Source: Prevotellaceae bacterium (GTDB lineage Bacteria > Bacteroidota > Bacteroidia > Bacteroidales > Bacteroidaceae). From it: a stretch of 64,000 bases of DNA. The position numbers were made by a program, and so were the translations under genes. Where the stretch lies: the NCBI GenBank assembly GCA_050873805.1, contig JBNMJN010000009.1, positions 1,871-65,870 on the forward strand, given 5' to 3'. The first letter of the stretch is position 1, and each line of letters opens with the position of its first letter. Below the pieces are notes generated by a model that saw only the letters and a program-made list of their open reading frames with translations, searched no databases and was not told where the DNA came from. Positions 24,778 through 40,786 of the stretch are shown here, piece after piece.

Positions 24778-25980
24778 ATGCCCAAAAGAATAGCTTCTTT
24801 GTTCTCTGGCTGTGGTGGATTAGACCTTGGTTTTACAGGTGGATTCACTTTCAGAGGACATGAATATAATAGACTTAATACAACTATACTGTTTGCGAAT
24901 GATTTTGATCAAGATGCGCAGACCTGCTATAATGCCAATCCACTTCTTGCAGAGGATGGGGCTGAATGCTTATTAGCAGATATTAGAGATGTTGAAGCAG
25001 AGAATATTCCAGACTTTGACATTTTGTTGGCAGGATTCCCTTGTCAACCATTTTCTAATGCAGGAAAACGAAAAGGGGTGAATGATGCTAATGGTCGGGG
25101 AACTTTATTTGCCGAATGTGAACGCATTATTCGGAGTAAGATAGAAATCGGACACAGACCACAAGCATTCGTATTCGAAAACGTACGTGGCATACTATCG
25201 TCAAAGATGCCAGATGGAGAAACAAGTGTTCCACAAGAGATTATAAACAGAATGCATAAACTTGGGTATCAAGTATCTATGCAGTTGGTCTGTGCCTCTG
25301 ATTATGGTGTTCCACAAAAGCGGTATCGTGTCTTGATAGTTGGTGTTGACGAACAATTAGGACTTGGTGCTTTTGATTTTGAAGCTATGCGGCATGTCGT
25401 AGAATTAAATAATATTCCTTCGGAACATTTTGGTAGGAAAGAAGGGCTTTTGCTTGGAAGAATCTTGCAAGGTGTTGAAAATGTCTCCGACAATGAAGTT
25501 TGGGAATATAGTCCTGGTACACAACAAACTGTAAATTTGATTGGCAGCTGTTCACATGGAATGAAAGCCATCCGTCAATTTCATGATGGATATAAGATTT
25601 CTGAGTTATCTGAAGATTGTTTTGAAGGGAAATCGTGGAAAGATATTCCTTACGAGTTATTGACTCCGAGATTTCGCAATATCGCAGACAATCCTCAAAA
25701 ATATCATGCTCCGAAATTCTTTAGAAGATTTGCTTTCGGGGAAATCAATGGAACGATTACAGCTTCAGCTCAACCAGACAAATGTGGAGTAACACATCCT
25801 GTTGAAAACAGAAGATATTCTGTTCGAGAATGCGCAAGGATTCAATCCTTCCCTGACAATTATACATTTGGTGCAATACCACTTCAATCTCGATATAAAG
25901 TCATAGGCAATGCTGTTCCACCTATTTTGGGATGGGTACTGGCATCAGCTTTGTTGGATTTTCTACCAAATGACAATTGA
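24778..25980 (+). CDS. DNA (cytosine-5)-methyltransferase
   Basis: Motif I SLFSGCGGLDLGF, motif IV GFPCQPFS, ENV, QKRYRV, C-terminal RECARIQSFPD and GNAVPP. Confidence 0.9.
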   Translation: MPKRIASLFSGCGGLDLGFTGGFTFRGHEYNRLNTTILFANDFDQDAQTCYNANPLLAEDGAECLLADIRDVEAENIPDFDILLAGFPCQPFSNAGKRKGVNDANGRGTLFAECERIIRSKIEIGHRPQAFVFENVRGILSSKMPDGETSVPQEIINRMHKLGYQVSMQLVCASDYGVPQKRYRVLIVGVDEQLGLGAFDFEAMRHVVELNNIPSEHFGRKEGLLLGRILQGVENVSDNEVWEYSPGTQQTVNLIGSCSHGMKAIRQFHDGYKISELSEDCFEGKSWKDIPYELLTPRFRNIADNPQKYHAPKFFRRFAFGEINGTITASAQPDKCGVTHPVENRRYSVRECARIQSFPDNYTFGAIPLQSRYKVIGNAVPPILGWVLASALLDFLPNDN

Positions 25981-25982
25981 TT

Positions 25983-28070
25983 ATGGGCTATTTAAGCAAG
26001 AAAACGATACTACAAGCTTATGAGAAACTTTCTCATTTAAGCAAAGACCCTACATTACAAGGGGCAACTCAGAAAGTCAGTGCTATAAGATATTTTATGG
26101 CACTCGATAGTTTCTGTCTGAAATTTCATAGAGATTGCAATACTCGCGACAAAAATGATAAAAAAGAATACGCCAATCACGTAGGTCTTGTGTGTGATGT
26201 GTGTCTAAACTTGTACACACCAAATTTTTATTATCCTCTAAAAGAACATAATAAAGATTTTGGCGTAGGTAGTAATTTTTATTCTGCAGGTCAAGTTAAC
26301 TCTTCACTTGTAAATCCAGAAGAAACGTTCGTTTATCCAAAACGTGGTGGAACTCCACTATTCCATATAAAAAATGGCACTCTAATTCGTGACGAAGAAC
26401 TGTATTCAAACTTTGATTCCTATATTGAAGGCGTTTCGTGTAGGGTAGCTTTTGTCTTATGGCTATTAAGAAAGACACCCATTGATGATAATGAAAGCAT
26501 CTTTGAAGGCATTCGAAAATCCATAAGTAGCATTTATTCAAAAAGACTTGTGGATACATTGATAAGTGATGAGGATTCTTTTAAATTAGAACTTGGCAAT
26601 TACGATTGCTCTCTAAATGAGAATTTCTATTCCATTAGAGAGGAAGACATAAATGGTTTATTCAATGTGAAAAGCAAGAATCAACGTCTGATAGTATCAA
26701 ACAATATGCTAAACCAGAACAGCAAAGAGATCAACTATCTCGCCGCCCTCCGCACCAAGCCTTTCATGCTTCTTGCCGGCATCAGCGGTACTGGCAAGAG
26801 CCGCATTGTGCGCAAGTTGGCACAAGCGACAGTGACAGAGGAGCTGCAAAGAGCAAATGGGTATAAGGGGAATGATTGGAAGGATGACCGTTGGACGCTG
26901 CACTCTCCAGCCAACTTTGAGCTTATACAAGTGAAGCCAAACTGGCACAACTCGATGGATGTAATTGGCTATTTGTCGAACATTCCGAGTCCGCATTATG
27001 TATTCACGCCATTCATTGAGTTTATAGTAAAGGCATGGCAGCATCCCGAAGTGCCGTTCTTCCTGTGCCTTGACGAGATGAACCTCGCTCCTGTGGAGGA
27101 ATACTTTGCCGAATTTTTGAGTGCCATTGAGAGCCGTAGCTTTGAGGGCGGAGAATACATGACCGACCCCATCATCAAGCCATTCAACTCTTTTGGAGAA
27201 GATGTAGCAAAAATAATGGTAAACACACTATTCCCGAACTTCAAGGCAAGCGATACAGAATCGGAGATTGTAAAGGTTATCACACATTTACGCACAAGAG
27301 GTCTGACCCTGCCCAAGAACCTCATTGTCATTGGCACGGTGAATATGGACGAGACCACTTTCTCCTTCTCACGCAAAGTGCTCGACAGAGCCATGTCGGT
27401 AGAAATGAACGAGGTGAACTACGACAGTTTCCTGACCGACGCGACAGATGATGAGCTCAAAGCCATTGTAAAGGCATTTGAGGAAAACGAAGAGGCAAAC
27501 CTGAATACATTGCTTGTAGACCGACACATCGAAGCAAGGGAAATCATTGAAGAACTTGGCGAGGATGCCCAGTTTGCCATTGACTATCTAAAGCGCGTCA
27601 ATGCCCTGCTTGAAGGCACTCCATTCAAACTTGGCTATCGTGCCGCCAACGAGGTGTTGATATATCTACAAGCTGCGCATGAGCTCGGGCAGACCGACCG
27701 CATAGCTGCGCTTGACAACTTTACGCTGATGAAGATACTCTCACGCATAGAGGGCGATGAAACAAAATTGAAAATCACCAATTCGGAAGCAGACAAGCAG
27801 CGCATAGCCAATGCCGGTGTTAACGTAGATGCCGCCAAGCAATATGGCGACTTGAACATACTCACGGCATTGAGGAACATCATCACGGGACAGTTGGGCG
27901 AGACTGATAATGCCGATATTGATAGTGATGATACTGAAGAAACGGCATCAGAGAATGGAGAGGAAATGATTTCCACCGAGCAGAAAAATAAAGAGTTACA
28001 GTCTGTCAAAAAGATAGACAGCATGCTCAGCCAGCTCAAACGTGACCATTTCGTTTCCTATTGGAACTAA
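25983..28070 (+). CDS. McrB-like AAA+ GTPase restriction subunit (LlaJI.R1-like) with an uncharacterised ~250-aa N-terminal domain
   Basis: Walker A LLAGISGTGKSR, FFLCLDEMNLAPVEEYFAEFLS, IGTVNMDETTFSFSRKVLDRA. The track start at 25977 is TTG; the ATG at 25983 lies 3 nt after the methyltransferase stop. Confidence 0.85.
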   Translation: MGYLSKKTILQAYEKLSHLSKDPTLQGATQKVSAIRYFMALDSFCLKFHRDCNTRDKNDKKEYANHVGLVCDVCLNLYTPNFYYPLKEHNKDFGVGSNFYSAGQVNSSLVNPEETFVYPKRGGTPLFHIKNGTLIRDEELYSNFDSYIEGVSCRVAFVLWLLRKTPIDDNESIFEGIRKSISSIYSKRLVDTLISDEDSFKLELGNYDCSLNENFYSIREEDINGLFNVKSKNQRLIVSNNMLNQNSKEINYLAALRTKPFMLLAGISGTGKSRIVRKLAQATVTEELQRANGYKGNDWKDDRWTLHSPANFELIQVKPNWHNSMDVIGYLSNIPSPHYVFTPFIEFIVKAWQHPEVPFFLCLDEMNLAPVEEYFAEFLSAIESRSFEGGEYMTDPIIKPFNSFGEDVAKIMVNTLFPNFKASDTESEIVKVITHLRTRGLTLPKNLIVIGTVNMDETTFSFSRKVLDRAMSVEMNEVNYDSFLTDATDDELKAIVKAFEENEEANLNTLLVDRHIEAREIIEELGEDAQFAIDYLKRVNALLEGTPFKLGYRAANEVLIYLQAAHELGQTDRIAALDNFTLMKILSRIEGDETKLKITNSEADKQRIANAGVNVDAAKQYGDLNILTALRNIITGQLGETDNADIDSDDTEETASENGEEMISTEQKNKELQSVKKIDSMLSQLKRDHFVSYWN

Positions 28071-28083
28071 CCATATATCGCAC

Positions 28084-30444
28084 ATGGCAAGCGTATTCAA
28101 CTTTGAAGTGGCAAATGAGGACTTGTTGGTAAGGTTCTCATGTCCCAATCATGAGCTGAGAATAGCCGAAACCGTCCGCAACCTATGTATCGACACTGAC
28201 TGTCAAGACAGTGCCGCAAAGTTGTTATGCCGTTACACGGCAGAAACTCAGAATGTAAAGTTCTCCTTTGAAGGAAACGTACAGGAGGGGAATGACATAC
28301 GACATGAAGCCGTGTTCTTTGAGAATACGGAATATCCGCTTATTGTGCGTGGCAGAGGAAAGGAGTTGCAGGATTTGTCGCTTGCCATCAACGACCATTT
28401 GCGCACAGACGGCAAGGAAAAAAGCACCATCATCAGCACGGGTGATGAACTATACGGCTCGCTGAACTTTCACAACCAAGTGGGCATGACCGACTTCTGC
28501 ATCACCTACAGGGTAAAAGGAGAAGTGCAGACTAAGGAACTGAAGTTCATGACCGAGGTGTTGAGCTACAAGTTGGACTACCGCTCCGACCTGAAGACCA
28601 TCATCTCTGACATAGAGCACGAGTATGCCATGCTGAGCACATCGTTCTTGAAGGACACCTATCTCAGTATGCGCCAAGGTACTGGTGAGAACAATCCGCT
28701 GATATGGTGGCAGATATTCAAGTCGTGCTATGCCGACATCATGGCGGCAGCACGCCAAATTATCGACCGCCCCAAACGGCGTTTGCGCTCCATTGCCAAG
28801 TATGAGAGAGCAGAGCGTATGGCGTATATCCCAAGAGAACTTGAAAACGAATACCAGACGCACAAGGACAATCCTGCTCATTTATACCGCACAGAAGAAC
28901 TTACGCTGAGCCACGACACAATAGAGAACCGCTTTCTGAAATATGCCATCCGAGAAATGACGCATCGCTTCGCCGTGGTGAAAGAACACATCATGACCGC
29001 CATGCACCTTGATGACCCGAAGCGCATTGATACTTCGCTTGAAGAAATGGAGAACGAGCTGATGCAACTCTCCAATAATGCGTTTTTCCGTGGCGTAGGA
29101 CAGTTCAAAGGATTCACGCAAGACAACCTCGTGATGAAACAGGCGCAAGGCTACAAGACCATCATGGAGAAATGGGTGGAACTGCAACAAGGTTATGAGT
29201 TGGAGGACGGCATGAGGAAACTGGAGGTGAAAGACATCTGCGACCTGTATGAGATATGGTGCTTCATCAAGGTGAAGAACATTGTGCAGGATGTGATGAA
29301 AGAGTTGGGCAAGGATGCCCAACCAAAGGTGAACGGCAGGGACATTACCAACGACTTCATTCCGCAGCTCGTATATGGCGGTTCGGTGAGTTTCATCAAC
29401 CAGTCAGGCATTGAGTTGGCAAGTGTATGCTACAATGCTGAGGTGCATAAAGGCAAATCCTATTCAGCCATAAGCGGAACAAACACCATGACTACGGTGC
29501 AGCGTCCCGACATAGTGCTACGGTTGAGCAAACAGGCAGAAGGCAACATGAAGTTCACCTACCTGTTTGATGCCAAATACCGAATAGCCGATACAGACGA
29601 GAACGGCAACAGATACGATAGTCGTTATGACGTTCCGCCTGCTGATGCCATTGACCAGATGCACCGCTACCGTGATGCCATATACTATACGGAGGAAGGA
29701 CGTGACCGTGAGCACTTGAAGAAAGAAATCATAGCAGGTTATGTGCTATTTCCTGGTCGCATACCATTAGAAGCTCTTGATGCGGAAAATGGAGACTATT
29801 ACTATCAGCAGTCAAACCGCTTGATTGGCATCGGCGCTTTTCCCTTGCGCCCTGACCAAGAGCAGCATGCTGATGACGGAACCATCATCGTAAATGCCAA
29901 CAGTTCGGAGCAAGCCTTGCGCAGACAGATACGCCATTGGCTTGAAGAAGACAACGGACGAGAGCAATTACTCGAAGAAAGTATTCCTCAAAAAGGGTTG
30001 GAATACTCGGACGAACCTGTTAATAAAGGTACATTCTACATTGCGTCAGTAGATGGGCATGTGAACGTAGCCAAGGAATTGGTGCTGAATGGTCAAAGCA
30101 AGATTTTCTTCTCTGGCTATAAATCCATCCTTTCGGGTGTGGATTTTCAGAAGATAAAATACTTTGCCCCTGTTGACAACCACTTGGTAAAAGGATATTA
30201 TCAGGTGCTCTCGGTGGAAGCGATGGATATGAGTGAAGTGCTGGTGAAAGAGAAAGCGGAAGCCAAAGGTGTAGCCTTGAAATATGGAGGCTACGATAAG
30301 CCTATCCGCATTTGCCTGAAGTTGGGCAAATACACTCTGCTATCCGCTCCCTTTGTCTATGGACTGGACAGCAATGCATCCAAAGGGATTGCTATGACAA
30401 GGAAAGAGTTTAAGGAGTATTGCGAGAGAACCACATCAGTATGA
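28084..30444 (+). CDS. McrC-like nuclease subunit (DUF2357-type N-domain + PD-(D/E)xK core + extra C-terminal domain)
   Basis: RPDIVLRL...YLFDAKYRI...DQMHRYRDAIYY gives a D...DxK nuclease core. ATG 28084 (MASVFNFEV) follows the McrB-like stop. About 170 extra C-terminal residues have unknown function. Confidence 0.8.
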   Translation: MASVFNFEVANEDLLVRFSCPNHELRIAETVRNLCIDTDCQDSAAKLLCRYTAETQNVKFSFEGNVQEGNDIRHEAVFFENTEYPLIVRGRGKELQDLSLAINDHLRTDGKEKSTIISTGDELYGSLNFHNQVGMTDFCITYRVKGEVQTKELKFMTEVLSYKLDYRSDLKTIISDIEHEYAMLSTSFLKDTYLSMRQGTGENNPLIWWQIFKSCYADIMAAARQIIDRPKRRLRSIAKYERAERMAYIPRELENEYQTHKDNPAHLYRTEELTLSHDTIENRFLKYAIREMTHRFAVVKEHIMTAMHLDDPKRIDTSLEEMENELMQLSNNAFFRGVGQFKGFTQDNLVMKQAQGYKTIMEKWVELQQGYELEDGMRKLEVKDICDLYEIWCFIKVKNIVQDVMKELGKDAQPKVNGRDITNDFIPQLVYGGSVSFINQSGIELASVCYNAEVHKGKSYSAISGTNTMTTVQRPDIVLRLSKQAEGNMKFTYLFDAKYRIADTDENGNRYDSRYDVPPADAIDQMHRYRDAIYYTEEGRDREHLKKEIIAGYVLFPGRIPLEALDAENGDYYYQQSNRLIGIGAFPLRPDQEQHADDGTIIVNANSSEQALRRQIRHWLEEDNGREQLLEESIPQKGLEYSDEPVNKGTFYIASVDGHVNVAKELVLNGQSKIFFSGYKSILSGVDFQKIKYFAPVDNHLVKGYYQVLSVEAMDMSEVLVKEKAEAKGVALKYGGYDKPIRICLKLGKYTLLSAPFVYGLDSNASKGIAMTRKEFKEYCERTTSV

Positions 30445-30734
30445 TATTTACTGCTGGCTTTCCCTCTCCATCAAGTCATGCACGAGTCTTATCTCCGAAT
30501 AGTCGTACTCTGCTCCCAGGGCTTATCTCGCTCCACCATCTGCTTATCCTTTCCTCGATTCCCACGCTTGTTCAGTCTGCCATTGTTATGTCTTATTGTA
30601 TGTTAGGCCATCTCTTAACTCATTATGTGTGGAATCCTGCTGGAGGTATGGATGGCTGTATTCCTCTGACTGCCAATAGTATCCACACTCCCAATGCCGT
30701 GGATGCAGCATTGGGCGTGTGTGGGGGGAGTGCC

Positions 30735-31481
30735 TCACTCAAATGCCCTCTCTATCAGGAGCAGGGTCATGAAGCCCAGGAGCAGGGCATAGGTGGCCTG
30801 CTTCTGATAGCCGTGGGCATGGGTCTCGGGTATCATCTCGTCGCTGGTCACATAGAGCATGGCACCGCCAGCAAAGCCCAGCATGACAGGCAGCATAGCC
30901 TGTGACATGCTGCCCAAGGCGAAGCCCAGCCACACACCCACCACCTCGAGCAAGCCTATGATGATAGAGATGACGAAGGTGCGCGGCGTGCTCACTCCTG
31001 CCAGCAGCAGGGGAGCGATGATGACCATACCCTCGGGCACATTCTGCAGGGCAATGCCAGCGCTCACAGCCCATCCTGCCGAGTCGAGGCCAGTCATGCT
31101 CACACCCGCAGCCATTCCCTCGGGCAACTTGTGCAGGGCAATGGCCATGACAAAGAGCAGGACACGGTTGAGCGAGGCATTGTGGTGATGTTCTGCCTCG
31201 CCAAGTCCTGTGATATGATGCAGGTGAGGCGTGGCCAGGTCAAGGACGTTGAGGAACAGGGCTCCCGCCATTACGCCCAGCACCACCAGCCACCAGTGTG
31301 CGGTCATCTCAAAGGCTGGCACTATGAGCCCCAGGGTGGATGCAGCCAGCATGATGCCCGCGCAATAGCCCAGTACCGTATCGTTCCACTTGTGGGGCAG
31401 TTCCTTGATGAGAAAACCCAGAAGGCTGCCTATTACCGTTGAGCCGCACAGTCCTGCGGCGCTAATCCATACTTGTGTCAT
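30735..31481 (-). CDS. zupT: ZIP family metal (zinc) transporter
   Basis: 248 aa, polytopic membrane protein with a His-rich loop (HLHHITGLGEAEHHHN) and ZupT-like ends. Noticeably higher GC than both neighbours. Confidence 0.8.
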   Translation of the reverse strand: MTQVWISAAGLCGSTVIGSLLGFLIKELPHKWNDTVLGYCAGIMLAASTLGLIVPAFEMTAHWWLVVLGVMAGALFLNVLDLATPHLHHITGLGEAEHHHNASLNRVLLFVMAIALHKLPEGMAAGVSMTGLDSAGWAVSAGIALQNVPEGMVIIAPLLLAGVSTPRTFVISIIIGLLEVVGVWLGFALGSMSQAMLPVMLGFAGGAMLYVTSDEMIPETHAHGYQKQATYALLLGFMTLLLIERAFE

Positions 31482-32455
31482 AGCTTTTCCTGTTTCTGCT
31501 GTGATGTGTTCTTGCCCTCTTCTGCGATAGTGACCTCATAAGGCACATGTGTCATGGAGGAGATGACACGCAGTATCCTGCACTTGTCCTTGACCAGTGG
31601 AGGTACCGTGAGCCATTCCCCCGATGAAAGTTGCACCTGATAGGGGTATTCTCTCTTAGGGGTGACTATCTGCTTGCCTGCTATCTTGAAGTTCGCTTTT
31701 CTGATGTTGCCAATCCCTATCTTTTGAAGCGATGCAATAAATACATGCTGATGGTCTGTGCTGGCTATTTCCTGTCTGTCAGGGAAAACGACACACAGGC
31801 GCGATTTTCTCCGATGTGCGATTGGCTTTGTCGCATTTCTAATGGGAACAATTGTGTCATAATCGCCTATTTCCACATGAGCATCGACACGCAGACGAGT
31901 GACGATGGAGGTTAACTGCATAAACTTTTGCCTGGTATCGCTTTGAACCATCAGAAACCATCCATCCTTAATCTCTTTTGTCCACTTGGCATATTGGGGA
32001 ACAATCTTTTGGGAAAGCAATGGAATGTGGCAAACTTCCATCTGCAGGGAAGCCACCTGCTCAATGCCAAGTTTCTTTATGGCTTGTACCATTGTTTCGG
32101 TAGCACTACTACCGCAGAATACCGTACCATCTGCAAAAGACACTTTCAGACGTTGGTTTTTACCTCGCATTCTGATCTTGCTGCATGATGATTCATGTGA
32201 TGGTTCTGCTTTTTTGTCTTCTTTGTCAGAAACGGAAACAGAGTTCATCGTATGCGTTTCCTTTGGGTGTGATTTCTCAGTCCTCTTTTCATACGCCAAC
32301 GATTCTTGGTACTTTGCTGCTTTAGCGGCTCCCTCTTGCAACGCTTCTCCCTGAATAGGGAAAGGCGCGGTGCAGTCTCCATGTGAATCCTCATTAAAGA
32401 ATGTGTCATCAAACAGAAACTGCTCTTGGTATGTTAAGCTCCTTTTTGTTGTCAT
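31478..32455 (-). CDS. Hypothetical protein with a tandemly duplicated ~93-aa domain
   Basis: 325 aa. Residues ~102-196 (RLKVSFADGTVF...IKKLGIEQV...DGWFLMV...) align with ~219-310 (RLCVVFPDRQEI...LQKIGIGNI...GEWLTVP...). The N-terminal ~100 aa are low-complexity. Its stop TGA overlaps the zupT ATG (ATGA). Confidence 0.6.
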   Translation of the reverse strand: MTTKRSLTYQEQFLFDDTFFNEDSHGDCTAPFPIQGEALQEGAAKAAKYQESLAYEKRTEKSHPKETHTMNSVSVSDKEDKKAEPSHESSCSKIRMRGKNQRLKVSFADGTVFCGSSATETMVQAIKKLGIEQVASLQMEVCHIPLLSQKIVPQYAKWTKEIKDGWFLMVQSDTRQKFMQLTSIVTRLRVDAHVEIGDYDTIVPIRNATKPIAHRRKSRLCVVFPDRQEIASTDHQHVFIASLQKIGIGNIRKANFKIAGKQIVTPKREYPYQVQLSSGEWLTVPPLVKDKCRILRVISSMTHVPYEVTIAEEGKNTSQQKQEKL

Positions 32456-32512
32456 GTGGTCATCATGTTCTATTGACGTTTTCCAATAGTTTACCGTGTT
32501 ATAATGTTGAAG

Positions 32513-33457
32513 TCAAGTTGCTAAAATGTATCCTTCTTGCTCATATCCCTTGCGGTACCGATGAATCATATCCACAAGAGGTTGAAGGCGGGCATCCGTC
32601 ACTTCCATGTTCTTGAACCTCGCATACTGCTGGTCATAGAGGGAGGCATTACCATCTGCCAAACGCACCTCAATGTCAGAGGGTATCAAGAAAGAAGCCC
32701 TATCCCCCAACTGGACATAAAACTCGGAGAGATAGATGTGAATACCAGCCAAATCGAAGTCACCGAAATGGATGTAGCGATTGGGAATCCGCTTCAGCCA
32801 ATCTCGCAAATCCGAAAGATTTTCCTGAGGATAACGGCTTACAAACAAATAATGTTTCTCCCGATGAAATCCATCAGAAGAACTTTTCCCACCAACAGAC
32901 AAAGCATCGAAAAGATACTCCTGCTTCCTAATCTGCATGAAATTCTCTGCATTCTCCATTCCCACCACTATTACATCTTCGGGAATCTCGAAGGTTTCTG
33001 GAGTGTTGATGAAGATGGAGCTGCCCTCCTGAGGTTTCAACAGGAAAGGACGATGATGCAAGGTCGCCTCTATCGGAGTATAGCAATCCACCAAGAAGCC
33101 TCGGAAAGTCTTCACTTTCTTATATTTGGAATCACCAACTTTAGAAACCAATTCCGCTCGGCTTTCCTGAGGAAATTCTCCTATCCATTCCTCCAACGAG
33201 CATTTCAGTCCAAACTGCTGCGCCAAGCACACACGGCAAGCCTCTCGCCGGGCATCGGCTATATGATACTTGCATCGACTGCCATTGCTTCTCATCAGCA
33301 GCAGGCTTTCTTGCCGCAACCATTCTGCCATGTGAGGAGACAGCTTTGAAGAAGCCACCTCCTCGCCATTCAGCATAGCCAGTATTTGTCGGGCATCGCC
33401 CAAGCCTAATTTCTCCATGTTCCACACATTATTGCATATAAGGAAACATTTTTCCAC
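32513..33457 (-). CDS. jetD: Wadjet JetD (Toprim / DUF2220-type nuclease subunit)
   Basis: VVGMENAENF...LFVSRYP...IHFGDFDLAGIHIY is Toprim-like. Last gene after jetABC. The 33457 start is GTG; an alternative ATG is at 33418. Confidence 0.8.
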   Translation of the reverse strand: MEKCFLICNNVWNMEKLGLGDARQILAMLNGEEVASSKLSPHMAEWLRQESLLLMRSNGSRCKYHIADARREACRVCLAQQFGLKCSLEEWIGEFPQESRAELVSKVGDSKYKKVKTFRGFLVDCYTPIEATLHHRPFLLKPQEGSSIFINTPETFEIPEDVIVVGMENAENFMQIRKQEYLFDALSVGGKSSSDGFHREKHYLFVSRYPQENLSDLRDWLKRIPNRYIHFGDFDLAGIHIYLSEFYVQLGDRASFLIPSDIEVRLADGNASLYDQQYARFKNMEVTDARLQPLVDMIHRYRKGYEQEGYILAT

Positions 33458-33463
33458 AAAAGA

Positions 33464-36400
33464 TTACAATCTCTTGATCAACTGTGTTACCTTCGTATTC
33501 GCCCTGCCGTCCTTGCTCAGCAGATACGTATATTTATAATCCTCCACATTGTAGGTGGTTGGCGAACTGTTCACCAACAAGATATTGCGGCGATTGGCGA
33601 AGTCGAGGATACCCTTCACATTGTTAGGATGGAGCTTTCCAATCTCGTCCATCATGCAGTGTATCTTGAAGTCGCCCGATTTCTTCGAGGCTTTCTCCTT
33701 GAACACGTTGATGAGCATGATGTTCACCATCGCCTTTACCAAGATGTCGGTGCCATCGGAACCCACATTGGCTATCTTCTCGACCCAACCCGTATCATTG
33801 TCGTTCTCCTTGATGCGGAACTCCAACTTGAAGGTATCGGAAACCTGCAACTGCTTGCGGTTCGGCTCGTCCAACAATCCCTTCATAAAGGCAAGGAGAT
33901 ACTTTACCGCCTTGGCGTTTACATCCTGACGAGACTCCGTGGCAAAGAGATCCATCTCGCCCATATTAAACTGGTTCTCTTCCGTGAAGTCCTTGATGCG
34001 CAGGAGCAAGAGCATCAACTGGTCGTTGGTCTTCAGAGGACGCAAGGCTATCTCTCGGATGACTCCCGCAAAGTTGCGCTCCTCGAAGTCGTGGTTGATG
34101 TCGTTGATGGTCTTGCCGATGTCTCCCTCCCGACGAGTCAAGTCGCCCACCTCCTTGGAGATGCGGAGGATGATGTCGGTGTATCGTCCGCTGATGCGTT
34201 TCTGATATTCCGAAATCTTGTCGTTCTCGACAAACTCGCAGAGGTTGGAAGCGAAGTCGAAGAACTCCTCTTCCGTCACCGGACTCACATTGAAGTGGAA
34301 GGTATTGTGCGGCGAGAACATTCCCAGGAACTGCTGCGACTGTTTCTTGAAAGTGTCGAGCGAATTTCGGTCGGCGAAGATTTGGCTCTTCAGTTCTTCT
34401 ACGATGGACAGGCAATCCTTGGTCGTGGTCTTCTCCTCCACCTCGTTGCTGCCGATAGGACTGAAGGTGTCGTTGCTTCGGAAGGTCTTGACGGCATTCA
34501 GGCCATCCTCCGCTTTCCGAAGTTCAGCCTGTTGCTTGGCGAGTTTATCTTGCACCACGTGAAGTTGCAAGCCGAGTCGCTCGCTACGTTGCTTGAACTT
34601 GTCTTCGAGCATCGTCAAAGCATCCGCCTTATTCTTTCGCTCTTGCTTGACCATCGGTTCTTGGTCAAACAATTCGACTTTGTCATTCCGATAAACAGCC
34701 ACCTCGTCTCGATGCTGACGGATAAACCTGAGCTCTGCATCCAGGTCAGCGATGCGCTTGTTGTAAGCGTCCAAAGCCGTGGTGTCCATTCCCTTGCCTT
34801 GCAACTCGTCGTGTTGCAACTTCAAGAGTTCCTGCTTGTGAGTTTCCGCTTGCTTTCTCTTGGTCTCCATTTGCGCCTTCGCATCGGAAGCAAAATACTC
34901 GTATGCATCGGTCTCAGTTTTCACCTGACGATTATACTCCGTCTGCAATGCCTTGAGTTTGCGCTGCAGTTCGCCTTCCAACTGGTGCTTGGCTTCTTCT
35001 CGCTTCACCTTTTCTGCCACAAGCGCATTCTGTTTGTCATCCAATTCAGCCAGTTGCTGCTTACGCCAATTCTCTAGTTGGTTCTGTAGTTCGAGTGCCT
35101 TGGTCTTGACTTTCTTCTCCAATTGCGGCAGCTGCTGTAGCTCCGCCTTTAATGTATGGAGGGTCTCGTTGAGTTTTCTTATCTGCGCCTGATACTTGCC
35201 TCGCAGAGTCTTGTTTGCCTCCTCATGCTGATGGAGCAACTCGTTCATCTGCTTCACAAGATGAGTGCGAAGTTCCTCTTTTTCTGATAACAACGCCTTC
35301 AACTCCTCAGGCGTTCTGAACTTTCGTTCGATAGCAGCGAGATTGATAGATACACCGTAAAGAGAAGCAGATGAAGAAATGCAAGAAGACAACCCAAGAG
35401 AAGGTTCTTTTCCTTCCATTGAAGCACCAACTCCATCTGCCAATTGTGGATTCAATACATTATTATATAATATCGTCTCCTCATCCACCACTTTTCCGAT
35501 ATTCTCTTGCCAACCTTTCTTGTTTTGGTCGAGCCATTCCGAGAACGAGCCTTTGCTCTTGTCCAAAAGGCTTTGAATCTTTTCGATTTCATCAAGCAGC
35601 TCAGTTTTCTGCCTTTTCGGCTCATCGAGCGAAGCTTGGAATTTCAGTTCAGCGATTTCCAATTCCTTCTCCGCCTCTTGTCGCAGCGTTTCCAAGCGCA
35701 TCTCCTGCTCTTTCACCTCTGCCTCCAACTGAGTCTTTCGAGCCAAGAGTTCCAGGTGTTCCTGCTTGTTCGTCTCCATATCCTTGGCAAACGGATTCTC
35801 GTGAGCCACCTTCGCTTTCTGGACTTTCAGGCTGGTTTCATCATGAGCGAGTTGGGCAATGACCTCATCTATTGCAGCAATCTTCTCAGCGATGAGAGTT
35901 CGAGATTCCGACTCCGCCTTTCGGAGTTCTTGCATCAAAGCCTCTTTCTTGTTCATCAAAGCAGCCTTGTGCTCATTCACATGCATCGTCATATTGTTCT
36001 CGAAGGCACGCAGGTCCATCTCCAGGAGATCCAACTGTGCCTTGTACTTATCCACCACGTTCTGGTATGATTTCTGCAGTTCAGCCTTCATCGCCTCCTG
36101 TCGTTTTCTCTCTTCCTCGATGGTCGATTCCTGCTCCACCCTTCTCTGCAAATCCTCAATATGAATCTCCTCATAATGCTTTCGCTTGGCGGCAGTTTTC
36201 TTCAGCTGGGCATCCAGCACACCTATCTCCTTGGTCAGTTTGTCACGCTCCTTGCCATACTTCTCTTGCTCCTCACCTTTCAGTTTGAGAAGGCGATTGC
36301 GCTCCACATCGCTCTCCTGGATGTCAAGTCGATATTGTGGCAGAAGTTCCTGGGCAATGCGCTCGGCATAATTGAGTTCCTTGCGTCCCTCTCGTATCAA

Positions 36401-37180
36401 TCGACGATTATTCAATAGGGTGCGATATGTATCTATCACCTTGTCTGCCATCCTGCGAACCGTGACCTCGCCATTTTTGTTTTGCGTAGTCCAAAGACTC
36501 ACATCCTTGTATTCCTGCTCAAACTCCTTGATTTGCTCACGATAGAAATTGAGGTTGATAAACATGTCCTCGTCGCTCATCGAACGGATGATAGTGTTCT
36601 TGATGAAGTCGGCATCCAACTTGGTATTGAGGAACACGTTTTGGATGGTACGCGGAATATTCTGATACTTGGCACTTTCCACAATGGCAAACTTGCGATA
36701 AGGCAGAAGTTCCTGTCGGCGGTTGTTGCCAAAGATGATGTCACGATAAATCTCGTAACTGCTCACAAGCGAAGAAATTGGATGTTTCTTGCCCACCTGT
36801 TCACGAATCTGGCTCCACTCCCCATACACCTGCTTATGCTCGTCGATAAACCACTTGCTGTCAAAAGGCGCATCGATGAAACGATACATGACTCGTCCCT
36901 GCGACTTCAATGCCACCACACAATACGCCCCATTCTCTCGCATCACCTCATAGACGATGTAAGAATTGGAATAAGGGAAATAAAAAGCATCAAAAGATTT
37001 CTTCTCCTTTGGGATGCCCAAGCGCAACTTGTCGGCATTATAAAAGAACAAGATGGCACGGAGCAAGGTACTCTTGCCCACGCCCTGGGTTCCGATGAAA
37101 TGAGCGTTTCCATCAAGCTTTACCTCTGCATAAGGAATATGCGCACTATTCAGGAATATGATTTTATTCAAATATCTCAT
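33464..37180 (-). CDS. jetC: Wadjet JetC (SMC-family ATPase)
   Basis: ~1238 aa from ATG 37180 (MRYLNKIIFLNSAHIPYAEVKLDGNAHFIGTQGVGKSTLL, Walker A). Very long central coiled coils. C-terminal head has CMMDEIGKLHPNN...LLVNSSP. Confidence 0.85.
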   Translation of the reverse strand: MRYLNKIIFLNSAHIPYAEVKLDGNAHFIGTQGVGKSTLLRAILFFYNADKLRLGIPKEKKSFDAFYFPYSNSYIVYEVMRENGAYCVVALKSQGRVMYRFIDAPFDSKWFIDEHKQVYGEWSQIREQVGKKHPISSLVSSYEIYRDIIFGNNRRQELLPYRKFAIVESAKYQNIPRTIQNVFLNTKLDADFIKNTIIRSMSDEDMFINLNFYREQIKEFEQEYKDVSLWTTQNKNGEVTVRRMADKVIDTYRTLLNNRRLIREGRKELNYAERIAQELLPQYRLDIQESDVERNRLLKLKGEEQEKYGKERDKLTKEIGVLDAQLKKTAAKRKHYEEIHIEDLQRRVEQESTIEEERKRQEAMKAELQKSYQNVVDKYKAQLDLLEMDLRAFENNMTMHVNEHKAALMNKKEALMQELRKAESESRTLIAEKIAAIDEVIAQLAHDETSLKVQKAKVAHENPFAKDMETNKQEHLELLARKTQLEAEVKEQEMRLETLRQEAEKELEIAELKFQASLDEPKRQKTELLDEIEKIQSLLDKSKGSFSEWLDQNKKGWQENIGKVVDEETILYNNVLNPQLADGVGASMEGKEPSLGLSSCISSSASLYGVSINLAAIERKFRTPEELKALLSEKEELRTHLVKQMNELLHQHEEANKTLRGKYQAQIRKLNETLHTLKAELQQLPQLEKKVKTKALELQNQLENWRKQQLAELDDKQNALVAEKVKREEAKHQLEGELQRKLKALQTEYNRQVKTETDAYEYFASDAKAQMETKRKQAETHKQELLKLQHDELQGKGMDTTALDAYNKRIADLDAELRFIRQHRDEVAVYRNDKVELFDQEPMVKQERKNKADALTMLEDKFKQRSERLGLQLHVVQDKLAKQQAELRKAEDGLNAVKTFRSNDTFSPIGSNEVEEKTTTKDCLSIVEELKSQIFADRNSLDTFKKQSQQFLGMFSPHNTFHFNVSPVTEEEFFDFASNLCEFVENDKISEYQKRISGRYTDIILRISKEVGDLTRREGDIGKTINDINHDFEERNFAGVIREIALRPLKTNDQLMLLLLRIKDFTEENQFNMGEMDLFATESRQDVNAKAVKYLLAFMKGLLDEPNRKQLQVSDTFKLEFRIKENDNDTGWVEKIANVGSDGTDILVKAMVNIMLINVFKEKASKKSGDFKIHCMMDEIGKLHPNNVKGILDFANRRNILLVNSSPTTYNVEDYKYTYLLSKDGRANTKVTQLIKRL

Positions 37181-37242
37181 ATCAATATCGTTTGTCAAGC
37201 CATCGCCCCTCAATGGCACTTGAATTCTTCACTCTTCGTTCT

Positions 37243-37803
37243 TCACACTTCACTTTCATCTTCCGCTTCATCGGTGATGGAAATGCAATCTGTCAAGTCT
37301 TCGATGTAATGGAAGGAAGCGAGGACTTTCCAAGTCTTCTCCAATTCATTTTGCTGTTCGATGAATCCCATACGTTCCAATTCGGCGATGAGTTTATCCA
37401 CCACATCATCGTACGACTTCTTCTCGCTGAAGAGTTTTCCAGCCAATTCCTTCAACTCCATGTCGCAGTTGATTCTCACCACGATGTCGGCAGCCGAGAA
37501 CACCAATCCCGAACCAAAGGCAGAGTTGTAGGTCTTCAAGAAGGTAAGATAATCTATCCACTTGCCCACCGACTCCAACTTGCGTTGCAAATCGACCTTG
37601 GCTTCCTTGCGAGTGAAGAAGAAATATCCATCGCCCGCTTCCAAATGGAAACCAATGCCACTGTAATACTCGTCATATTCTGCCTGATTGTCCTCGATGG
37701 CATCATAATATCGCTTCATCTTAGCCTGGACGCTGTTGTTGGAAATGAAACCACCACGGCTCAGGATATTGAAGATTTCTTCTGTATAGTTTAAGCTATT
37801 CAT
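37243..37803 (-). CDS. jetB: Wadjet JetB (MukE/KITE-like, DUF4194-type)
   Basis: 186-aa acidic protein between jetA and jetC. Size and position fit; family assigned by context. Confidence 0.7.
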   Translation of the reverse strand: MNSLNYTEEIFNILSRGGFISNNSVQAKMKRYYDAIEDNQAEYDEYYSGIGFHLEAGDGYFFFTRKEAKVDLQRKLESVGKWIDYLTFLKTYNSAFGSGLVFSAADIVVRINCDMELKELAGKLFSEKKSYDDVVDKLIAELERMGFIEQQNELEKTWKVLASFHYIEDLTDCISITDEAEDESEV

Positions 37804-37824
37804 TTTTATTAGATACTATTTGAG

Positions 37825-39024
37825 TTATCTTGGGAGTATCATTGGATACTCCACTCCATACGCTTCGGCATAATTGCCTGTAAATTTCAGTTTATCTACA
37901 TATTGCGAGGCTATCTGGCAGAAATACACCAACTTGTCTTTCAAGCTCTGTTTCTTGTCGTATTGATAGTTCATCACGAAAGCGAAGAGATGGGTGCTCG
38001 AAGCCGAGAAGGCATTATAGATTTCCTGCAAATTCACAGCCTCCAACTTCTGCTTGTTGCTCTTCAGATAATCATCGGGTATCGGCTCAGCCACATTGTC
38101 CAAGCCTCTGCCCTCTCTCTTCTTCAATTTCTCCGACAATGCCCGGATGCACTGCAATGCCTCATCGGAAGTACGAAGATTATCTATCGACAATTTGATA
38201 TAATACTTCGGTTGCGGTTCCATCCACACTGCATTTCTGGCTGCGAGAACCTGACGCACATCCGTCGCTTCCTCCCATCTAAACTGGTCCTTGAGGTATT
38301 TCAGCTTCTTCGCCTTCTCGAAGATACGATTCTGATAATCTATCAAATTCAGATATTGGATGATCTGGCGTTCAATCTCCAAGAGATTGTGATAAGATTC
38401 GTTCAGTTGCAAGCGAACGTCATTGACCACGTTTCTCATCTGCACATCCATCGCCACAGAGAAAAAGATGGGTTGCTCGGTGTCTATCACTCGCTCACTC
38501 TCGGTGATGAGTTGGGAGATATTCTTCAGTTTCTCGCTGAGTCGTTGGAGCTTTGCTTTCTTGATGGCATAGTTGGGCTCGTTCTTGTAAGTATTGTCCA
38601 TGTTGCGCTTCAGGTCGAGCACATTGCGCACCGTTGCCAAGGCTATCGTCTTCAAGCATCGGCGCACTTCCTTCAGATACTTATACTTACGGGTCTCATT
38701 GTTTTCCTTCAGATAGTAGTCGATATTCTCGTTCAAGGCTGAGATATAGTCACGCACCGAGGATACATTGATTTCCTCGTTGACCTCCAGTACATCCTCG
38801 AAGAACTTCTGATATACATCCTCCATCTCCAGGCAATCCCCCGTATCACGTATCACCCCATTCTCTATCAAGAAGCGAATGCGCTCCTCCTTATACTCAG
38901 TCATCTCCAGGGCATAGTCGTATCGAAACTGAAGGGAATGCCGTTTTGCAAACATCTCCTTCAGCAGCAACTTCTCCCTGTCGAGTGCTCTCACCAGTTC
39001 GTCTATCGATCGGAATGTTCCCAT
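37825..39024 (-). CDS. jetA: Wadjet JetA (kleisin-like, DUF3375-type)
   Basis: ~399 aa from ATG 39024 (MGTFRSIDELVRALDREKLLLKEMF...). First gene of the four-gene array. The 30 upstream codons of the track ORF look non-coding. Confidence 0.7.
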   Translation of the reverse strand: MGTFRSIDELVRALDREKLLLKEMFAKRHSLQFRYDYALEMTEYKEERIRFLIENGVIRDTGDCLEMEDVYQKFFEDVLEVNEEINVSSVRDYISALNENIDYYLKENNETRKYKYLKEVRRCLKTIALATVRNVLDLKRNMDNTYKNEPNYAIKKAKLQRLSEKLKNISQLITESERVIDTEQPIFFSVAMDVQMRNVVNDVRLQLNESYHNLLEIERQIIQYLNLIDYQNRIFEKAKKLKYLKDQFRWEEATDVRQVLAARNAVWMEPQPKYYIKLSIDNLRTSDEALQCIRALSEKLKKREGRGLDNVAEPIPDDYLKSNKQKLEAVNLQEIYNAFSASSTHLFAFVMNYQYDKKQSLKDKLVYFCQIASQYVDKLKFTGNYAEAYGVEYPMILPR

Positions 39025-39286
39025 TGCTCTTGGATTTTGGGGGTGAAGTATTGTTGCCTGTGTTTTCTTCTTTTGGCATTTCTGGCATTGTGTTGGGACG
39101 CATGAGAAGGACACCAGGCACAGGGTTGTTTAGGCTGTAAAGTTACATGAATTGTGCGAGACGACAAGCCCAGTATGGTGGCTTTTTCTGTTCGGGTGCT
39201 TTTCGGGAGGGAGAAAGGGAGCAGGCTGGCCCTTCGGACATCGCGCCGAGGAGCCAGCCTGTGGAGTATGGGGGTGTGCAAATGGC

Positions 39287-39814
39287 TCAGAACTCGAAGC
39301 CGAACTGAAAGCCTATGTTGTGATAGCAGTCGCGATGTGAATAGCTGACACCCCACCAGTCTTCGGTGTCCTTTTGGGTGAGCAGTGTATAGGTGAACTC
39401 AAAGTTGATGGCAAACCTGTTGGCCACCGGCATGCTCACGCCGATGGATGGCTCGATGTAGCCGCCTGTGAAGTCGCCCACGCAGCCACCTCCCTTGAAG
39501 TCGAAGTAGGGACTGATGGGACGGTTGATGAAGTTGATGCGCGCCTGCCCAAAGAGGGGAGCGTAGGCCGCAGCACCGTCAGGGTTGGACAGATTCAGCC
39601 CTATGCCTGCTCCCACGAAAATGTAAGGATTGACTTGCAGACCGTGTGAGGTGGTGAAGGAGAATGCCGTGGAATTGTCCCCGTCATAGAATGTGGAACT
39701 TAGTCCGATGTTGGCAAATCCCTTGTAGGCCATGTGGCGGTCGCGAAACTCGCTCTGCGCCATGGCCGACAGGCCGAGGCATGCTGTGATGAGAAGTGTG
39801 ATTAGTTTCTTCAT
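39287..39814 (-). CDS. Small outer-membrane beta-barrel protein (porin-family/OmpW-like)
   Basis: Signal peptide MKKLITLLITACLGLSAMAQ, alternating amphipathic strands, C-terminal ...GFQFGFEF. Confidence 0.75.
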   Translation of the reverse strand: MKKLITLLITACLGLSAMAQSEFRDRHMAYKGFANIGLSSTFYDGDNSTAFSFTTSHGLQVNPYIFVGAGIGLNLSNPDGAAAYAPLFGQARINFINRPISPYFDFKGGGCVGDFTGGYIEPSIGVSMPVANRFAINFEFTYTLLTQKDTEDWWGVSYSHRDCYHNIGFQFGFEF

Positions 39815-39886
39815 TGTGTGAATTGTTTGTGGTGAATAGTCTTGATGGATGACTTGTAGGCTCGTGCTCCTCTGGCGCTTGTCGCA

Positions 39887-40705
39887 TTAGTGAACCGTTC
39901 CGTATGGCTCGGATGCGTCTGCTGAGAAGTCTTTCTTGTGCATGTGGTCATAAGGCAGATAAAACCTTGTGTTTCGGGCTTGCTTGTTCACCTTCTGCTT
40001 CAGTTGTGACTTGCAGCCTGTCTTCACCTTCTCCTCAATCTCCGTTGACACGTAATTGGTGAATCCTGCCACGTGGAAATCATTCTGGACAACCTTTTCC
40101 TTCTGCGAGTCTCCCACTCGGTAAGTGATGTAGTTGGAGAAGTGCAGCGGGCTGTTCTCTTGTGTGAAGGTAATGCTCTCGGGTTTCTTGCTCTTGGGGA
40201 AGAGCCTTATGGAGCAATCCTGCATCACATCTGCGGCGAGTGTGAACTCGCTCACGGACTTGCCCGCATGGGGCGGTATGGCAATGATGGGCTTTTCGCT
40301 GGTTGTCATGTTTGAGGAAGTTGTCTTGGAATTAGAGCTTGCAAGTGTGACAGGTGTGCCCACAAGCAGTGAGAATGCTGTGGCAGCAGTTGTGTTGGAT
40401 GAGGACCTGGTTGTCCCGTCTTCGTGAGTCCTGTTCTGGAAGTAGTCATAGGCTGTGCCGTTCTCTATGAAGAACGTCTTGGTGAGGTCAAGGTAGAGAA
40501 TCTCATCGGTCAGATTCTCAACGTAGAAACCTGGGTCTCCCCCCTTGCTCCACAGGGCATAGGTGATGCGGCAAGCCTCGTCGGTATAGACATAGTTGTC
40601 GTTGACTGTGGGGAGTGAACTCTTGACATCCACCACCTGCATGTAGGTGGATGAGGCGCATGAGCACAAGGCTATTGTGCAGAGCAGCAAAGGAAGCTTT
40701 TTCAT
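39887..40705 (-). CDS. Hypothetical lipoprotein
   Basis: MKKLPLLLCTIALCSCAS has a lipobox. 272 aa with a central S/T-rich linker. Confidence 0.7.
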   Translation of the reverse strand: MKKLPLLLCTIALCSCASSTYMQVVDVKSSLPTVNDNYVYTDEACRITYALWSKGGDPGFYVENLTDEILYLDLTKTFFIENGTAYDYFQNRTHEDGTTRSSSNTTAATAFSLLVGTPVTLASSNSKTTSSNMTTSEKPIIAIPPHAGKSVSEFTLAADVMQDCSIRLFPKSKKPESITFTQENSPLHFSNYITYRVGDSQKEKVVQNDFHVAGFTNYVSTEIEEKVKTGCKSQLKQKVNKQARNTRFYLPYDHMHKKDFSADASEPYGTVH

Positions 40706-40778
40706 ATCGATGATGTTTTATGTTGTTTTGTCCCACGCCTCTTGACTCTGCTGTCCCTGAGGCAGGGCAATGATGTTG

Positions 40779-40786
40779 CAAATATA
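40779..40786 (-). promoter_or_regulatory. Bacteroidota -7 box (TATATTTG) upstream of the lipoprotein gene
   Basis: Plus-strand caaatata equals TATATTTG on the minus strand, ~75 nt upstream of ATG 40705. Matches the TAnnTTTG consensus. Confidence 0.35.

Follow-up and report, generated by a model that had tools for sequence, protein, structure and literature searches.

A tandem-module protein gene beside a Wadjet operon as a candidate mobile, replisome-tethered DNA reader

We examined a gene that lies between a Wadjet/Mks-type operon and a ZIP transporter gene in a Prevotellaceae bacterium (Bacteroidota; Bacteroidia; Bacteroidales; Bacteroidaceae in the GTDB lineage). The gene sits in a 64,000-nucleotide stretch of DNA (NCBI GenBank assembly GCA_050873805.1, contig JBNMJN010000009.1, positions 1,871 to 65,870, forward strand), here called the window, and coordinates are counted from its first letter. 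Its product, P0001, is encoded by a real, conserved, and mobile gene. With middling confidence, we read P0001 as an autonomous, mobile, replisome-tethered DNA reader that belongs to a non-enzymatic, undescribed family, a function that we infer from sequence and predicted structure. The open reading frame (ORF) and its parts are as follows.

31478..32455, minus strand: whole ORF of P0001, 325 aa, with an ATG start and a family of homologues
32396..32428, minus strand: residues 10-20, QEQFLFDDTFF, a degenerate, beta-clamp-binding-like copy of the family's QLSLFDDSFF (family alignment A1; consensus in PMC12309361)
32168..32395, minus strand: residues 21-96, an acidic, poorly conserved, predicted-disordered tether (AlphaFold confidence, variability in A1, isoelectric point)
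31868..32167, minus strand: module 1, residues 97-196 (module profile, E 1.7e-38; AlphaFold 2 confidence about 90; isoelectric point 9.4)
31880..31972, minus strand: residues 162-192 within module 1, a strand-loop-helix aligned with SeqA 141-171 (profile match; PMC2691817)
31526..31810, minus strand: module 2, residues 216-310 (module profile, E 1.7e-26; order of elements in the AlphaFold 2 model; isoelectric point 9.9)
31478..31519, minus strand: residues 313-325 and the stop codon, a non-conserved tail that reaches the TGA on the ZIP ATG (A1 and sequence)

An earlier note on this DNA had described two copies of a module of about 93 aa, at nucleotides (nt) 32152-31868 and 31801-31526, behind a low-complexity N-terminus of about 100 aa. 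The duplication was borne out by a profile hidden Markov model of the module, built from 196 family members, which matched residues 97-196 and 216-310 of P0001 in agreement with those positions. By BLASTP, one half matches the other only weakly (E 0.009). AlphaFold predicts the same order of strands and helices in both halves, with a predicted local distance difference test score (pLDDT) of about 88-93; module 1 modeled alone gave a predicted template modeling score of 0.79 and a pLDDT of about 90. Tandem ferredoxin/ACT-like proteins, returned weakly by Foldseek for the full model against the Protein Data Bank (PDB) at a root-mean-square deviation (rmsd) above 12 Å, were dismissed as noise. 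The module pair is basic (isoelectric point 9.9, with 34 Lys and Arg versus 19 Asp and Glu), while residues 1-92 are acidic (isoelectric point 5.1). The N-terminal region falls below a pLDDT of 50 at residues 1-47 and 57-98. The region described earlier as low-complexity is predicted to be disordered; it is not featureless, however, as residues 10-20 form a family-conserved motif that the earlier note had overlooked.

The module could not previously be assigned to a family, which proved correct, as none exists in Pfam. Direct searches of Pfam, NCBIfam, PADLOC, and PHROGs with P0001 gave no match. Nonetheless, homologues of about 300 aa formed 47 clusters at the 90% identity level, 38-50% identical to P0001, and a library clustered at 50% identity held 466 representatives at E ≤ 1e-3, 40 of which scored below 1e-30. 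The conserved unit is the module pair, and many members consist of the pair alone (about 220 aa). In other members, the pair is fused to an N-terminal Mrr_cat restriction nuclease (P0055, P0057, P0063, and P0066), to an N-terminal MTaX1 domain (six proteins), to an SF2/ResIII helicase (P0133 and P0163), or to C-terminal CarD/TRCF and PcrA/UvrD Tudor domains (P0069). The CarD/TRCF and PcrA/UvrD Tudor domains bind RNA polymerase. MTaX1 has been proposed as a discriminator of modified DNA in restriction-modification (R-M) systems (PMC10853773). Taken with the basic core, these fusions and the MTaX1 proposal lead us to view the module pair as a nucleic-acid reader used by restriction-type enzymes, and it looks like their target-reading part. 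The same tandem pair forms the non-catalytic portion of Mrr-type (type IV-like) and MTaX1-containing R-M proteins, and throughout the Mrr, MTaX1, and SF2-helicase fusions it occupies the position usual for target-reader domains. Unlike the Mrr and MTaX1 proteins, P0001 carries no nuclease, helicase, or MTaX1 domain; the PD-(D/E)xK nuclease domain Mrr_cat is absent from it.

How the modules might contact DNA is suggested by a likeness to SeqA. Two of the MTaX1 fusions gave sub-threshold Pfam SeqA_C matches inside a module. DNA-bound SeqA also appeared when the full P0001 model was searched with Foldseek (3fmt_A; probability 0.75; rmsd 2.8 Å across 78 columns), the remaining matches being poor. 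To follow this lead, we aligned 69 module instances broadly (A3). The A3 profile, run against 177,635 PDB sequences, placed four SeqA constructs at ranks 1-4 (E 0.075-0.12), and hhalign of A3 with Escherichia coli SeqA gave a probability of 50-54%. A Pfam scan of the 69 instances found SeqA_C matched by five and every other family by one. The SeqA score of 13.8 bits was reached by none of 5000 SeqA shuffles (maximum 10.2 bits) and exceeded that of any other protein of the source genome (≤9.7 bits). Widening the SeqA profile hardly improved it, with the 120 relatives listed all at least 82% identical. The aligned segment pairs SeqA 141-171 (PGTPYWVITNTNTGRKCSMIEHIMQSMQFPA) with P0001 162-192, such that Gln171 and Asp173 of P0001 align with Asn150 and Asn152 of SeqA, respectively. 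These two Asn residues belong to the SeqA DNA-binding loop (PMC2691817); the loop residues themselves differ. The gathering score of SeqA_C (PF03925; 25.5 bits) was not reached: P0001 gave no match, and the best family members scored between E 0.014 and 2.4e-4.

Between P0001 and SeqA (E. coli; PDB 1LRR and 3FMT), a local strand-loop-helix, GxxWhhhT.S.T..K....I, can be aligned. SeqA acts as a pair of fork-following DNA-binding domains, and P0001 has two modules in one chain together with a putative clamp tether. The two also differ. P0001 has no match to the SeqA_N oligomerization domain (PF17206), and its N-terminus is predicted to be disordered; elsewhere in the module, the elements follow an order that matches no structure significantly. 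SeqA comes from a gammaproteobacterium and P0001 from a member of the Bacteroidales, and SeqA tracks forks through Dam hemimethylation, whereas tracking by P0001 would go through the clamp. We consider the likeness a moderately supported lead for how a module may touch DNA, rather than a sign of family membership. That the modules bind DNA is probable.

The second element of our reading is the N-terminal peptide. The family consensus in A1 is MAKK..QLSLFDDSFF, in which Leu14, Phe15, and Phe20 are conserved at ≥90%, and residues 21-96 are variable. This motif matches the consensus by which bacterial proteins bind the sliding clamp, QL[S/D]LF or, in its looser form, QxxLF (PMC12309361). In its place, other members have QELSLF, QEMSLF, QLPLF, QLDLF, or QMDLF, and two Prevotella members have QLELPF; QELSLF, QEMSLF, and QLELPF are hexapeptide-like forms. 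A strict motif at residues of about 9-20 is present in 51 of the 86 members whose N-terminal extension measures 25-140 aa, and several more are near-matches; it is present in none of the 35 members with long, domain-bearing N-termini. Since exact QL[SD]LF occurs three times in about 946,000 ORF residues of the source genome, which is roughly chance level by our estimate, the argument rests on the motif's fixed place and conservation and not on its mere presence. Clients of the clamp DnaN, such as PolC (QLSLF), likewise carry a short QL[S/D]LF- or QxxLF-type peptide in a disordered terminus. The N-terminal QLSLPL of Hda and the QLSLF of plasmid RK2 TrfA are also clamp-binding motifs, and that of Hda lies at the extreme N-terminus, as in P0001. 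Unlike PolC, Hda, and TrfA, P0001 has no polymerase, AAA+, or initiator domain, reads QEQFLF, and its clamp binding is a prediction. For the family, docking of the N-terminal peptide on the clamp appears likely; for the degenerate copy in the window, we place the likelihood lower.

A small protein that holds a clamp-binding-like motif on a flexible tether and in which no enzymatic domain was found could also be a stand-alone effector. Such a protein would fill the clamp cleft, bind DNA, and block invader or host replication, providing single-gene defense or abortive infection. The precedent is SocB of Caulobacter SocAB, a clamp-binding, replication-blocking toxin that is likewise small and non-enzymatic. 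Action of P0001 at the clamp cleft is only proposed, and P0001 differs from SocB in lacking a partner antitoxin and in being dominated by tandem DNA-binding-like modules; no sequence relation between the two was seen. The possession of an own promoter and the solitary occurrence in many loci, as well as an enrichment beside defense genes, would suit an effector. Nevertheless, no antitoxin-like or regulator gene recurs as a neighbor. Copies are stable in housekeeping operons, where the spacers are very short, as would suit a protein that is tolerated constitutively, and the conserved tandem modules are common to nucleases and helicases, which argues for DNA reading as the core activity. We regard an effector of this kind as improbable.

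The basic, DNA-binding-like core would equally serve a regulator or silencer of horizontally acquired genes, with an N-terminal motif that binds a partner other than the clamp. The gene's place at the borders of variable, low-G+C islands is compatible with this role, and LSLFDDSFF is longer than the clamp consensus, making another partner conceivable. Neither family nor structure searches, however, found a helix-turn-helix or other known regulator fold in P0001. In addition, the motif fits known clamp-binding classes in several independent variants, and the fusion partners of the modules are restriction nucleases and helicases instead of regulator domains. A silencer therefore ranks as an unlikely explanation.

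Under the clamp-tethered reading, P0001 would consist of two basic alpha/beta modules of about 100 aa, joined by an acidic, disordered tether of about 75 residues to an N-terminal peptide whose most likely docking partner is the sliding clamp DnaN. The peptide would bring the protein to sites at which clamps are loaded or remain behind, namely replication forks and replicating plasmid or phage DNA. Both modules would then bind nearby duplex DNA through the SeqA-like strand-loop-helix, and they might read the modification state of the bound DNA; recognition of DNA modification or replication state is conceivable, if somewhat short of an even prospect. The biological output that we infer is one of occupancy, in which nascent DNA would be marked or sequestered, a step that is speculative. 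The domain family itself is undescribed, and P0001 is built from known principles, namely SeqA-like reading and clamp tethering.

Several observations weigh against this proposal. The SeqA match is local (about 30 residues) and lies below every curated threshold. A narrow family profile against PDB sequences and a narrow alignment compared with SeqA by hhalign gave nothing, and Foldseek of module 1 alone against the PDB returned no significant match and no SeqA. More generally, neither the PDB nor the viral structures of BFVD hold a significant match to the P0001 fold. The window copy of the motif, QEQFLFDDTFF, retains Gln, Leu-Phe, Asp-Asp, and Phe-Phe but is degenerate relative to QLSLF, and P0001 sits on a long branch of the family tree. 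Linkage to Wadjet recurs in the clade nearest P0001, which leaves room for a functional tie, and with no clear promoter box in the 57-nt gap downstream of jetD, the P0001 gene may depend on the Wadjet operon.

The autonomy and mobility of the gene emerge from the contexts of its homologues. These occur in Prevotella/Segatella, Lachnospiraceae, Acutalibacteraceae, Oscillibacter, and a Sphaerochaetaceae bin, i.e., in Bacteroidota, Bacillota, and Spirochaetota, and this host range indicates horizontal spread of the family. At most homologue loci, a TAnnTTTG box of the Bacteroidetes type precedes the ATG by 25-40 nt. Defense genes are frequent neighbors. Directly upstream, in the same orientation, lie a DrmD-like helicase accompanied by a type III methylase and a type III restriction enzyme (loci L006 and L023), a type I HsdR with a YhcG nuclease (L021), a McrB/McrC-like pair (L039), or HipA together with an ADP-ribosylglycohydrolase and a UvrD-like helicase (L015), and in the window, L012, and L013, the homologue directly follows Wadjet genes on the same strand. 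AAA-ATPase_like/PDDEXK_9 genes occur at or near the homologue in at least seven loci (L004, L011, L014, L017, L019, L037, and L040); L037 has two tandem copies of them and a homologue that is relocated relative to L040. Elsewhere, the upstream neighbors are housekeeping genes, encoding GH2, arabinofuranosidase, PfkB, FolD, an amino-acid kinase, carbonic anhydrase, or DUF3843 beside ribosomal protein L17.

Two loci, L026 and L028, contain AIPR/MzaE-like (AbiU-like) genes directly followed by family variants in which Mrr_cat is fused to the tandem modules (L026:9488-10648 and L028:9635-10762). The AIPR/MzaE-like gene and the Mrr-fused relative may constitute an undescribed two-gene restriction module.

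Comparisons of closely related loci indicate how the gene moves. L039 and L005 are collinear except for a 5.5-kb block bordered precisely by the amino-acid kinase gene on one side and the homologue on the other (L039:1226-6685 versus L005:6273-6294), which encodes RhuM, a DUF8425/DUF8426 protein, a McrB-like AAA_5 protein, and McrC with a FokI-like cleavage domain. Starting 125 nt upstream of the gene, L021 and L037 share 99% identity, and their upstream cargo differs. In L040 as compared with L037, the homologue is relocated and inverted with respect to conserved flanks, and homology stops at the ORF borders. In these three comparisons, the gene behaves as a self-contained unit with a tendency to border variable regions. 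On the proposed mechanism, the gene would be an autonomous, horizontally mobile unit that gathers at the 3' edge of DNA-targeting defense operons and also settles within housekeeping loci.

An island-edge position would also be explained if P0001 were a mobile-element helper, that is, a target-site or integration factor that finds replicating DNA via the clamp, as in the case of Tn7 TnsE. The exchange of defense blocks directly upstream of near-identical loci (L021 versus L037; L005 versus L039) and the relocation of the gene itself (L040 versus L037) are in line with such a role, as are the many contigs that break near a homologue and the transposase genes nearby in L004 and L039. Against this, no recombinase or transposase is consistently adjacent, homology of the relocated copies stops at the ORF borders, and the flanks of the homologues showed no conserved terminal repeats or shared sequence, save for an upstream block common to L012 and L015 and a jetD-start remnant that links L013 and L016. 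We judge a helper function very unlikely. The block in L012 (281-553) and L015 (7531-7866), both Bacillota bins, comprises a conserved, divergent ORF of 90-111 aa and about 130 nt of shared upstream DNA; the homologue's neighbors in the two loci differ (JetD versus HipA).

In the window, the genes on either side of P0001 are arranged as listed here.

37825-39114, minus strand: JetA-like ORF (no Pfam match)
37243-37803, minus strand: MksE/JetB (MksE, E 1e-42)
33464-37219, minus strand: DUF3584/JetC, MukB-like (domain match)
32513-33457, minus strand: DUF7281/JetD (weak PADLOC JetD matches)
32456..32512, minus strand: spacer of 57 nt between jetD and the P0001 gene, with no terminator-like site and no TAnnTTTG box
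30735..31481, minus strand: ZIP/ZupT-like transporter, a host gene of 58% G+C, its start overlapped by the P0001 stop

The ORFs at 32513-39114 (minus strand) form a Wadjet/Mks-type operon. The earlier account of the junctions was accurate: the 325-aa ORF (31478-32455, minus strand) follows the jetD-like end at 32513 after 57 nt, a consensus terminator scan was blank in this gap and also at the ZIP junction, and CTATGA at 31478-31483 contains both the P0001 TGA and the ZIP ATG. The P0001 gene and jetABCD have a G+C content of 43-52%, compared with 58% for ZIP and about 55-58% for the helicase gene beyond the operon, and this shared low G+C marks them as one foreign block of about 7.6 kb. A C5-methylase/McrB/McrC-like operon lies at 24778-30444, on the far side of ZIP. 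With this McrBC-like operon on one side and jetABCD on the other, the reader gene stands between two DNA-targeting systems.

This arrangement had led the earlier note to ask whether the gene encodes a fifth, accessory Wadjet component. A dedicated subunit would couple JetABCD loading or cleavage control to replication forks or DNA state, at least in the present Wadjet lineage. The setting is suggestive, with the same strand, a 57-nt gap devoid of terminator-like site or own promoter box, and the low G+C of jetABCD in contrast to ZIP. Related loci add to it. In the family tree, L012, L013, L015, L016, and L018 form one well-supported clade, the nearest to P0001, which is most similar to the L012 homologue (52%). 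The homologue lies after jetD in L012 and between jetC and jetD in L013, where jetD starts about 12 nt after the homologue's stop; in L016, about 25 nt of that L013 jetD start remain behind the homologue's stop codon.

The wider survey speaks against the idea as a general rule. A search of the order identified jetD homologues (31-54% identity) in 20 further genomes. Roughly 16 of these loci had sufficient flanking sequence, and at none of them did the module occur within 1.5 kb; the gene is thus not a regular part of this Wadjet type, and its co-occurrence with jetABCD is not regular in this sample. Conversely, Wadjet is present in 3 of about 27 homologue contexts, while about 25 other contexts are free of it, many of them between housekeeping genes, and a promoter box of its own accompanies most homologues. 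Placement with respect to jetD varies, and the Wadjet-linked copies may stem from one ancestral event. The L013 copy has its own 260-nt upstream region with a TAnnTTTG box. Within that region (L013:9800-9870) are three copies of the palindromic GATAGCTAT, an array that may be an operator or a protein-binding array.

Wadjet/MksBEFG (JetABCD) thus adjoins the P0001 gene on the same strand and at the same G+C, and two related loci hold a homologue inside or after the operon, yet Wadjet is described as a four-gene system of which P0001 is not part, and most homologues are found elsewhere. We consider a dedicated fifth component unlikely, and a functional tie confined to this lineage is similarly doubtful. 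The alternative raised earlier, of an unrelated island gene, comes closer to the evidence but is too dismissive given the jetABCD-like G+C and the Wadjet-linked nearest clade. As we picture it, the gene would have arrived with or next to jetABCD without being a regular Wadjet subunit.

Regarding transcription, a scan of 27215-40786 found one perfect Bacteroidetes -7 box, TATATTTG, at 40779-40786 on the minus strand, before a lipoprotein gene. From 40779 to the end of ZIP, the minus strand has no TAnnTTTG across the run of lipoprotein, outer-membrane protein (OMP), jetABCD, P0001, and ZIP genes; in particular, none occurs in the 57-nt gap or, for ZIP, in the 3' end of the P0001 gene. The absence of internal boxes is compatible with read-through and one long transcript, although the number of TAnnTTTG boxes in the window is not above chance and a sigma-70-type scan was not above shuffles. 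Judged by sequence, the P0001 gene is probably co-transcribed with jetD and ZIP.

The ATGA overlap itself, earlier taken as translational coupling, is present but resembles a by-product of a junction. Family members end at ..EVKIIE, and P0001 runs on for 13 non-conserved, disordered residues to its TGA. In L072, a relative from the same genus, the ZIP start (ATGAC; L072:1501) shows the same ATGA overlap, there with the stop of an unrelated gene of 431 aa. From the non-conserved tail and this second ATGA, the overlap is best read as a by-product of the joining of island and host genes, and it may couple ZIP expression to island transcription. Other relatives have a separate region upstream of ZIP that bears a TAnnTTTG box. 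The DNA upstream of ZIP differs in every relative examined, and an empty-site comparison gave no island boundary.

Together, these findings indicate that the P0001 gene should not be annotated as a fifth Wadjet subunit, while singling out one lineage in which a functional tie to Wadjet merits testing. They also bring to light a widespread module that occurs in several architectures and has no model in Pfam, NCBIfam, PADLOC, or PHROGs. The subfamily found in the window would link a restriction-type reader to the replisome clamp. A bolder possibility, which we think unlikely, is that the protein is a general plug-in for DNA-targeting immunity, serving Wadjet, McrBC-like, and type I and type III R-M systems. 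Positioned on sliding clamps behind forks, it would mark or shield nascent DNA according to the modification or replication state of that DNA. If true, it would let a neighboring nuclease system distinguish self DNA under replication from plasmid or phage DNA entering the cell, and Bacteroidota and Bacillota would have reinvented a SeqA-like principle for use in immunity. Should clamp and DNA binding be confirmed, the family would offer a simple handle on the interplay between defense islands and replication, and would represent a SeqA-like, fork-following protein outside the gammaproteobacteria.

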